Shown here one piece after another: positions 3,267 through 37,594 of a DNA stretch of 64,000 nucleotides. The notes under the pieces are model-generated. The model was not told the DNA's origin and did no database searches. It worked only from the letters and a program-made list of their open reading frames with translations. How positions within the stretch are numbered: position 1 is the first letter of the stretch; each line of letters opens with the position of its first letter. The position numbers and the translations under genes were made by a program. This DNA is from a virus (Duplodnaviria; Caudoviricetes), in the IMG/VR virus record IMGVR_UViG_3300021979_000004, positions 1 to 64,000 of that record; one strand, given 5' to 3'.

Positions 3267-3349
3267 TGGCACCCAAGGTAGGATTCGAACCTACGTTTTC
3301 AACTCCAACTACGCTTACTTGGTTCGTAGCCAAGCACGGTTACTTGGGT
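3267..3349 (-). tRNA. Atypical tRNA-Arg(ACG) lacking a D-arm
   Basis: Acceptor ACCCAAG/CTTGGGT+GCCA, anticodon arm CTTGG-CTACGAA-CCAAG, canonical T-arm; only 8 nt where the D-arm should be. Confidence 0.65.
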
Positions 3350-4862: not shown

Positions 4863-4891
4863 AGACTAAACTTATTTATGGTTTCTGTCAA
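4863..4891 (-). promoter_or_regulatory. Sigma70-like promoter with nested CATAAATA late element
   Basis: TTGACA-gaaaccataaataagtt(17)-TAGTCT; a further TATAAATA lies near 4806-4813 (minus). Confidence 0.7.
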
Positions 4892-4909
4892 GCACTTTTT
4901 TAAAATTTC

Positions 4910-24915: not shown

Positions 24916-24987
24916 GTATTGACAGATATTAGTTTTGATTGTATTCTTATTACAAGTTGATGAGAAAATAAATTTTAAAAAAGTGTA

Positions 24988-25016
24988 TTGACAGAAACCA
25001 TAAATAACTTTACACT
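24988..25016 (+). promoter_or_regulatory. Sigma70-like promoter with nested CATAAATA
   Basis: TTGACA-gaaaccataaataactt-TACACT, about 10 nt before tRNA-Thr. Confidence 0.75.
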
Positions 25017-25026
25017 TGAACAAGTT

Positions 25027-25323
25027 GCCGTAGTAGCTCAGTTGGTAGAGCAACTGACTTGAAGATACGAGCCTCAATTTGGAAACAATTTGAGTGGAAG
25101 GAATCAAATTCAGGGAAACCTTAACACGTAATGGTGATGGCAATCCTGAGCCAAGCCTAGAAGTTCTAGGAAGGTGCAGAGACTAGACGGTTCCTACCTA
25201 AGCATTCTTAAAAGGAATGTATGGTAAAGGTATAGTCCAGACCACAAATGTGAAGACAGTAGCGAAAGCTATAGTGGTAAGGTAATCAGTAGGTCGGGGG
25301 TTCAAATCCCTCCTGCGGCTCCA
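25027..25323 (+). tRNA. tRNA-Thr(TGT), intron-split: exon 1 25027-25060, exon 2 25282-25323
   Basis: Joined exons give ACTGA-CT-TGT-AA-TCAGT anticodon arm, GCCGTAG/CTGCGGC acceptor and CCA. Confidence 0.92.
25061..25281 (+). ncRNA. Group I self-splicing intron (IC3, trnL-UAA type), 221 nt, no ORF
   Basis: AATTCAGGGAAACC, GGCAATCCTGAGCCAAG, GGTGCAGAGACTAGACGG, ATAGTCC, CAGTAGCGAAAGCT; exon ends in U with U:G in P1 (CTT/GAG); intron ends in G. Confidence 0.92.
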
Positions 25324-36369: not shown

Positions 36370-37594
36370 ATAGCTTTGGTACTCGCTTGACCGTCCCGAT
36401 AGTAAGAGCAAAGGTCATAAATCATTGCCACCAAAGCTTTTTGCCCATAGGCTTACTCACCTATGTTACAGGCGCGGTAACCAATCCGAAGAGTAAGAGT
36501 TACGAGAGTATATAGGCATGGTCCTTTTTCATCATGTGAAATTCCTATCAAGTAAGGGTCATGACCTATATACTCTCAACGACCGATGGCACCCTTGGAC
36601 TAGCTCATCCATGTTACAGGTGCGGTATCCAGCCCGAAGAGCTACCGAATTTTCTAACCAAGGTTTGGCGTAATATGGCCTTGGTTCTAAAAACCACAAG
36701 TGTCTGTTTTTTCCTCCTTTGTCGGACACGCTACCAGTGGGTACAGGGGATAGAGGTTCACCCTGAAGTGGGTATACAGGACAAATATTTAGTTTCTGTC
36801 TCCGGTCCTGTATACCTAAACTTATTTGCCGAAAACCTGTAGACGGTTCTTTGCAGTTGTCCGTCAATAACCGCAGGGTAAGGGGTATTGTGGTTCACCC
36901 CAAATGTTTTGCCTAATGGGTTGTAAATAATATAATTACAATACATTAAGAAGTAGAGGTGAGGTTATGTATACAGGTCATTCCTGTGTGTAGGTTGAAC
37001 TCCTGCTAACCAACACCCTCTGCGACAAGTTTATAACCATGGGAATAAGACCTCTGCAAGCAAGTCCATCTGTGAAATCTCGTAGGAGAAGCGACGGTGA
37101 GGAACCTACGGAAGTGAGTAACATACATGGTTAAAGTTTTGTGCATATGGGTTTGAATTGTTTTTAAAACTTTAAATATCTAATCTAATTTCTCCATTAG
37201 GTTTCCATATGCACAATTTATTATGTACCTGACCGATCCTCTTGGTGCCCTCCGTCTCAGCATAACCAATGGTCAGGTACAGTTTTTATGCGTCGTAGGA
37301 CTGCCGGAATTGGACTACAGTCATCAATGGTCTTCTTCTGGGGTGTCTGAACGTTTATAGTGATTAGAGATAGATGACTCAATACTCAACTCATTATAAA
37401 CCTCCCTGTTCGACTCGGGGGCGACGAGCCAACTTCAAGTCGGGTAGCTCAGATGAATAGAGCGCGTCACTGATAAGGACGAGGCCGGTAGTCACTACCC
37501 CCGAATTAAAAAATTATGGTGCTGTTGCTTGCTGATCACAAGTAGGGAATATACTGATCTAGACAGGAGTGGGTTCGAATCCCATCCAGTGCCA
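36370..37594 (+). ncRNA. Array of structured non-coding RNAs (about 1.25 kb)
   Basis: Many 9-13-bp perfect helices, a duplicated motif and several T-loop arms; no credible ORF. Confidence 0.65.
37441..37505 (+). pseudogene. Degenerate tRNA-Ile(GAT)
   Basis: D-arm AGCTCAGATGAATAGAGC and loop CT-GAT-AA intact; T-arm lost. Confidence 0.5.

Follow-up and report, generated by a model that had tools for sequence, protein, structure and literature searches.

The tRNA gene at 25027–25323 on the plus strand of this viral contig is interrupted within its anticodon, which raises the questions of what the interruption is, whether the gene can still yield a tRNA, and how the interruption came to be in a phage. 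The window is the whole 64,000-nucleotide stretch that was analysed, part of an IMG/VR virus contig of 217,982 bases judged 73% complete. The locus is very probably a functional gene for tRNA-Thr(UGU) in a jumbo phage with a contractile tail, split between U34 and G35 by an ORF-less, IC3-like group I intron that probably came from a retargeted phage tRNA-Leu(UAA) intron.

The gene consists of two exons (25027–25060 and 25282–25323; Table 1) that give a 76-nt tRNA-Thr(UGU) once joined. The 5' exon contains the acceptor strand GCCGUAG, U8–A9, a D arm with G18–G19, A26, the anticodon-stem strand ACUGA and C32–U33–U34. The 3' exon continues with G35–U36–A37–A38, the stem strand UCAGU, a 5-nt variable loop, the T arm, the acceptor strand CUGCGGC, U73 and CCA. 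The G1–C72 and C2–G71 acceptor pairs of tRNA-Thr are visible in the sequence. ARAGORN called tRNA-Thr(tgt) with a 221-nt intron when introns were allowed, and a 76-nt tRNA-Thr(UGU) from the joined exons; this bears out the claim of the initial annotation that splicing would restore a normal tRNA-Thr, with the anticodon loop CUUGUAA after predicted splicing. In its default mode, without introns, the same program missed the gene. Two other ‘intron’ calls in this genome are artefacts, each spanning neighbouring tRNA genes.

No second tRNA-Thr gene was found in the 218-kb record by ARAGORN or among the Rfam tRNA hits; two additional Rfam hits that ARAGORN missed have ACG and GAU anticodon loops and are not threonine tRNAs. 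ACA makes up 33% of the threonine codons of the phage. The 25-mer that covers the anticodon arm of the joined exons occurs exactly in more than 120 viral contigs, and the intron-less tRNA-Thr(UGU) of jumbo phage PA5oct has the same 25-base arm, so the predicted product would carry an ordinary, widespread tRNA-Thr(UGU) anticodon arm.

The interruption is a group I intron. The initial annotation had placed a 221-nt insert of this type after U34, with a U:G pair in P1 and a terminal G, and its coordinates proved exact: the cmsearch with the Rfam Intron_gpI model (RF00028) gave 65.3 bits against a cut-off of 50 (E 2.7e-14 over the 64-kb window), with an end-to-end match at 25051–25254 that is the sole hit in the 217,982-base record. 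Manual placement of the helices used the alignment of tRNA introns in Williams 2020 (bioRxiv 10.1101/2020.01.27.920355), the rows of which were compared by eye, and every pair was then checked. P1 to P10 all pair, and the core helices are canonical throughout except for one U:U in P2. P1 is short, with three exon pairs plus one. The features of a group I intron are all present: a score above the model cut-off, the U:G pair in P1, a terminal G with P10, and a P3–P8 core with the P3/P7 pseudoknot and P7. Since the internal guide UACGAG is fully complementary to the ligated CUU/GUA, both splice sites, and with them the anticodon UGU, are fixed. The minimum free energy fold returns P2, P3, P4, P5, P5a, P6a, P8a and the entire P9 domain, with a z-score of −2.65 relative to shuffled sequences. 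The CCUAAG...UAUGG of P8/P8a is presumably the sequence of the 11-nt GAAA-tetraloop receptor. Other traits of IC3 introns are also found: a compact form without P5abc, GNRA loops in P2 and P9, the receptor-like motif in P8, and insertion in the anticodon loop. Judged by its architecture (the helix map and the IC3 rows of the Williams alignment), the intron would be classed as a tRNA-type group I intron that is IC3-like.

Table 1. Positions of the exons, intron helices, splice signals and promoter-like sites of the tRNA-Thr(UGU) gene, numbered along the window.
Feature	Position	Strand	Description	Basis
tRNA-Thr(UGU) 5' exon	25027–25060	+	34 nt, positions 1–34, ends C32 U33 U34	ARAGORN (introns allowed; joined exons)
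tRNA-Thr(UGU) 3' exon	25282–25323	+	positions 35–76, GUAA...UCCA, U73, CCA encoded	ARAGORN
Group I intron	25061–25281	+	221 nt, begins G, ends AAG, no ORF	Rfam RF00028, helix check, covariation
P1	C32–G25071, U33–A25070, U34:G25069 (wobble), G25061–C25068	+		pairing check
Internal guide UACGAG	25066–25071	+	GAG with C32-U33-U34 (P1), UAC with G35-U36-A37 (P10)	direct pairing check
P10	G35-U36-A37 with C25068-A25067-U25066	+		pairing check
P2 hairpin	25073–25094	+	GAAA tetraloop, 8 pairs plus one U:U	pairing, MFE fold, covariation
P3	25100–25105 / 25189–25194	+	encloses P4, P5/P5a, P6/P6a and the P7 5' strand	canonical pairs
P4	25110–15 / 25144–49	+		canonical pairs
P5/P5a	25119–25140	+		canonical pairs
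P6/P6a	25150–25175	+		canonical pairs
P7	25181–25185 / 25233–25237	+	guanosine-binding helix, 3' strand UAGUC	pairing check
P8/P8a	25195–25226	+	has CCUAAG...UAUGG	pairing, covariation
P9 three-way domain	25241–25278 (P9 25241–45 / 25274–78)	+	P9, P9a, and P9b with GAAA loop	pairing, covariation, MFE fold
Terminal G	25281	+	preceded by AA	
Distal sigma-70-like site	24919–24947	+	TTGACA-17-TATTCT, 10/12 matches; sequence match only	consensus scan
Proximal sigma-70-like site	24988–25016	+	TTGACA-17-TACACT, ends 10 nt before the tRNA; sequence match only	consensus scan

Conservation and covariation were assessed in an alignment of the intron with 70 other distinct tRNA introns (71 in total). P3, P5, P8, P8a and P9b each have several pair types per position, which supports these helices by covariation, and all five pairs of P7 are invariant in 71 of 71 introns. 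The phage intron matches 70 of the 73 columns that are conserved in at least 95% of the others. Two of the three mismatched columns are the two sides of a single P4 pair, in which G–C has become A–U, a compensatory change; the third is a C/U position ahead of AGAGAC that is variable in known introns too. P3 (GGAAUC/GGUUCC) departs from its commonest version on both strands, and its pairing is still complete. The conserved core is intact, and its retention together with the compensated changes in P3 and P4 argues against a decayed relic.

The splicing mechanism of group I introns is textbook knowledge. Here, transcription would probably begin at the promoter-like sites immediately upstream of the gene. 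In the precursor, the guide would pair with C32–U33–U34 to form P1 with its U34:G wobble, and free guanosine bound in P7 would attack after U34. G25281 would next occupy the guanosine site while the guide holds G35–U36–A37 in P10, and the exons would be ligated. Ordinary end-processing would then give a 76-nt tRNA reading ACA and ACG codons. We infer both the splicing of the intron and the firing of the promoter sites from the sequence.

Of the dual promoter that had been proposed, what stands is a pair of sigma-70-like sites upstream of the gene, both with a perfect TTGACA, which are sequence matches only. The two share GTATTGACAGA and, downstream, ACAAGTTG. A near-copy of the proximal site, with the nearly identical spacer GAAACCATAAATAA, lies at about 4891 of the window (4863–4899) on the minus strand, upstream of a minus-strand cluster of eleven tRNA genes. 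The region holds six promoter-like sites compared to 4.1 (sd 2.6) in shuffled sequences, and so is not above chance; genome-wide, there are 31 TTGACA-N16-18-TAnnnT sites compared to about 15 in shuffles, again as sequence matches only. No terminator-like site was found downstream of the tRNA-Thr gene, and small ORFs begin 18 nt past its CCA. As had been claimed, there is no homing ORF: the plus strand of the intron has no ORF of at least 40 aa, and the eight flanking ORFs have no match to HNH, GIY-YIG or LAGLIDADG endonucleases, so no recognisable endonuclease of the kind carried by mobile introns accompanies it. PHROGs and Pfam assigned no function to the flanking ORFs.

The phage itself is a jumbo myovirus, as indicated by its tail sheath protein. 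Across its full length of 957 aa, this protein shares 54.5% identity with the sheath of Salicola phage SCTP-2 (440 kb), the nearest isolate; the identity is ca. 38% to the sheaths of the Pseudomonas PA5oct group and ca. 33% to those of jumbo coliphages. The host is probably a gammaproteobacterium. Apart from tRNA-Thr, ARAGORN called 18 tRNA genes in the window, interspersed with small ORFs in the manner of jumbo phages. When 50,697 phage records were searched by BLAST with the locus, for both near and distant matches, the hits were confined to the conserved core of other introns, and no relative of the phage was among them. No syntenic loci were found by way of the upstream 147-aa ORF, an 853-aa ORF had no phage match, and SCTP-2, PA5oct and Phosso gave no group I intron hit. 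Among the phage records, IMG/VR and the metagenomes searched, no close relative of the phage was found in which the locus could be seen without the intron.

Outside the window, at 71579–73660 of the record, an ORF of 694 aa includes a domain for intein splicing (Pfam PF14890, E 5e-15). The phage thus carries at least one intein in addition to the intron.

The initial annotation took Thr(UGU) to be a new host site for such introns, which it is not. Williams 2020 (bioRxiv 10.1101/2020.01.27.920355) raised the number of classes of bacterial tRNA group I introns from four to 21, including ‘Thr.3Ug’, which has the same site and guide, and the seed alignment of that preprint contains Mti5.Thr.3Ug, with the P1 region CUUG-AACAUA-CGAG, nearly the same as that of the phage intron. 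The phage intron conforms to the definition of the Thr.3Ug site: it has Thr exons, lies between loop positions 3 and 4 (after U34), follows a U at position −1 and has G as its last base. A Thr-specific guide pattern run on one genome per species (185,579 species) recovered nine genuine bacterial tRNA-Thr(UGU) introns, mostly in Beta- and Alphaproteobacteria; the examples retrieved (L124–L157) include genes of Magnetospirillum molischianum, Zoogloea, Burkholderia, Massilia and Thiobacillus. Of the 34 matches of a strict P1-to-P4 pattern in bacterial genomes, 24 were due to chance, and the sole IMG/VR match of this pattern was also a chance one, inside a coding region.

The bacterial Thr.3Ug introns resemble the phage intron in isoacceptor, site (CUU/...G/GUAA), U-1, terminal G, UACGAG guide, length (206–249 nt, compared to 221), architecture, and the GAAA loops of P2 and P9. 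They differ in that their hosts are bacteria rather than a phage, their identity to the phage intron is only ca. 72%, their exons are identical at 54–57 of 73 positions with another anticodon stem, and they do not group with the phage intron on the free tree. The P1/P2 junction of the phage intron also lacks the UG spacer of the bacterial Thr.3Ug introns.

The introns of tRNA-Leu(UAA) genes likewise lie after U34, and have the CUU:GAG P1, the same core and the same P9 three-way domain. Those from viruses reach 74% identity to the phage Thr intron and have the GAG/CCU junction too, along with a P2 that resembles that of the Thr intron. Leu introns have UU as the P10 half of the guide, compared to UAC in the Thr intron, and the exons are those of Leu rather than Thr. 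A further row of the Williams alignment, Aol6.Ile2.5Ug, is also small and ORF-less, with GAAA loops in both P2 and P9, CCUAAG/UAUGG in P8, three pairs in P1, and J8/7 and P7 sequences identical to those of the phage intron, but it is inserted after position 36 rather than 34 and has a simple P9 hairpin instead of the three-way domain.

In viruses, introns of this kind are numerous. A 20-base core motif, AAGGTGYAGAGACTAGACGG, occurs in at least 120 IMG/VR contigs, a sample biased towards this core sequence. Among the matches listed, 88 of 120 contigs have the motif within a tRNA gene that is split; ca. 64 of these tRNAs are Leu(UAA), and the others include CAU, Lys, Ser and Arg tRNAs and one more Thr(UGU). 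Intron-split viral tRNA genes are often found in dense tRNA clusters of low G+C content, many of them with 5–30 tRNAs. Twenty viral ARAGORN calls of ‘tRNA-Tyr(ata)’ are in fact tRNA-Leu(UAA), with the splice site misplaced by two bases.

The second viral Thr(UGU) intron is on a 14-kb contig (L224) that encodes 15 other tRNAs, and it has the same UACGAG guide. With a junction pattern that fixes the anticodon stem of the present gene, this contig was the sole other match in IMG/VR, and a near-copy (L278) was found in metagenomes; Thr(UGU) introns are therefore rare among phages. A pattern for the 3' junction, run on metagenomes, returned L278 as a true relative of L224 and, in addition, an odd locus, L287; ten further matches were due to chance. 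The odd locus, at ca. 480–830 on the minus strand of metagenome contig Ga0208102_1022781, has a group I intron with a Thr-type GUAAUCAGU arm in its 3' exon; its 5' side has a Leu-like D arm, CUU/A and a UUGAG guide, and the tRNA may be chimeric or misjoined.

A related case in an isolated phage is the tRNA(CAU) intron of jumbo Klebsiella and E. coli phages, such as Klebsiella phage Muenster. It is also a group I intron of the anticodon loop, in the same broad group of jumbo myoviruses, and its P3–P6 core is 87% identical to the present one over ca. 87 nt. Unlike the Thr intron it lies after CAU (36/37), with additional sequence inserted after P7; its score is 104 bits, and there is a free-standing HNH gene close by. 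In Muenster (MT708547.1) an unannotated tRNA(CAU) gene at ca. 302826–303136 is split after the anticodon by a 231-nt group I intron, likewise unannotated, with an Rfam score of 104 bits. This split gene lies between the annotated genes for tRNA-Ser and tRNA-Asn, and after the cluster comes a gene for an HNH endonuclease.

A review by Hausner, Hafez and Edgell from 2014 (PMC3984707) noted that the phage introns known at the time were all in protein-coding genes, despite the many tRNA genes of phages. Devoto et al. (bioRxiv 10.1101/356790) described ‘enigmatic’ introns in the tRNAs of Lak megaphages, including Thr(TGT), which to those authors’ knowledge had not previously been reported in phage tRNAs; Rfam was checked and the class was left unnamed. 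The Lak gene is, like the present one, a phage tRNA-Thr(UGU) with an intervening sequence, but the intron here is a clear group I ribozyme. No published account of a group I intron within a tRNA gene of a phage was found, although absence from the literature searched is not proof. Insertion in Thr(UGU) after U34 is thus already a bacterial class (in a preprint), and introns in phage tRNA genes are widespread though apparently unreported. The Thr locus, the Muenster intron and the 88 of 120 IMG/VR contigs among the matches listed together indicate that such introns are frequent in phage tRNA genes. Standard tRNA finders miss genes with such introns, and the tRNA repertoires of phages are undercounted as a result; in this phage the sole tRNA-Thr gene found would be missed.

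The origin of the intron was considered with a maximum-likelihood tree of 71 tRNA introns, a set without cyanobacterial or plastid trnL sequences. The phage Thr intron is on a long branch (0.81) and clusters, at low resolution, with L224 and with viral Leu(UAA) introns. The nearest sampled sequences are viral tRNA-Leu(UAA) introns, with identities of at most 74%. Of the kinship with the trnL(UAA) IC3 intron of cyanobacteria and plastids that had been proposed, the IC3-like type and the closeness to tRNA-Leu(UAA) introns are upheld among the sequences sampled. The P1/P2 junction is GAG/CCU in the phage Thr intron, L224 and 35 viral Leu introns, and GAG/UGC in nine of nine bacterial Thr introns. 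In the nearest viral Leu introns P2 is very similar, and the guide differs mainly in its P10 half (UU, compared to UAC here). The placement on the tree and the GAG/CCU junction make retargeting of a phage Leu(UAA) intron through the shared CUU the better-supported origin, though not a proven one. By this route, the Thr intron would descend from tRNA-Leu(UAA) introns circulating in the tRNA clusters of phages, with an altered P10 half of the guide directing it to the new target. Transposition by way of the CUU end of the 5' exon was also the suggestion of the initial annotation; the CUU:GAG P1 is indeed common to both, with a different P10 half, but the AU test does not reject a clade with the bacterial Thr introns (p 0.07). 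With CUU in common, Leu(UAA) and Thr(UGU) form a concrete pair for testing how ORF-less introns change their target site.

A phage could instead have captured a bacterial tRNA-Thr(UGU) gene that already held a Thr.3Ug intron, in which case the present intron would be a diverged member of that lineage. All nine bacterial genes agree with the phage gene in isoacceptor, site and UACGAG guide, but a shared exon sequence forces a shared guide, so the guide says little about descent. In the AU test, a clade of the phage intron with the bacterial Thr introns had p 0.074, and one of the phage intron with L224 had p 0.2; neither was rejected. The free tree, on the other hand, puts the bacterial Thr introns in a group of their own across a basal split, which is itself weakly supported (71/82). 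The limited identity of the exons (54–57 of 73), the anticodon-stem strand (ACUGA here, ACCGC in the bacterial genes) and the junction sequence, GAG/UGC in every bacterial gene, also speak against capture, which is considered unlikely. Retargeting of a phage Leu(UAA) intron agrees better with these differences. A bolder reading is that the intron is kept for a benefit to the phage, for example if the precursor shields the anticodon loop of tRNA-Thr from host anticodon nucleases, or if the need for guanosine ties the tRNA supply to the state of the infected cell. In a milder form, phage tRNA clusters would be a large undescribed pool of ORF-less introns that switch isoacceptors by the guide alone, where the Thr intron would have arisen independently of the bacterial Thr introns. 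This reading is speculative and is given little weight.

Two further explanations concern the gene and the contig rather than the descent of the intron. The gene could be a tRNA pseudogene with an intron that no longer splices, as the short P1, the U:U mismatch in P2 and the long branch might suggest. Such decay is very improbable when 70 of 73 conserved core columns are kept, two of the three changes are compensatory, P3 has changed on both strands with full pairing, and the helices and both splice-site signals are all intact; moreover, the gene is the sole tRNA-Thr gene found in the 218-kb record (ca. 73% of the genome) and immediately follows a promoter-like site of which a second copy precedes the other tRNA cluster. 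The stretch could also be bacterial DNA misfiled as viral, with an ordinary bacterial tRNA intron, since the record comes from a metagenome-derived virus collection, is incomplete (73%), and encodes in the window many proteins that match no phage family. Against this stand the full-length match of the tail sheath to jumbo myoviruses, the 18 further tRNA genes set among small ORFs in the style of jumbo phages, and the pattern scan of bacterial genomes, which returned no match to the locus beyond the nine distinct Thr.3Ug genes; misfiling is thus extremely improbable.

The window also contains two unusual tRNA-like sequences. At 3270–3349 on the minus strand, an Rfam tRNA hit of 41.5 bits that ARAGORN misses has a nearly absent D arm and, in place of the variable loop, an insert of 20 nt; its anticodon loop is CUACGAA (ACG, Arg). 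At 37438–37507 on the plus strand, a weak Rfam tRNA hit (32.5 bits) has a GAU anticodon loop and a short T loop.
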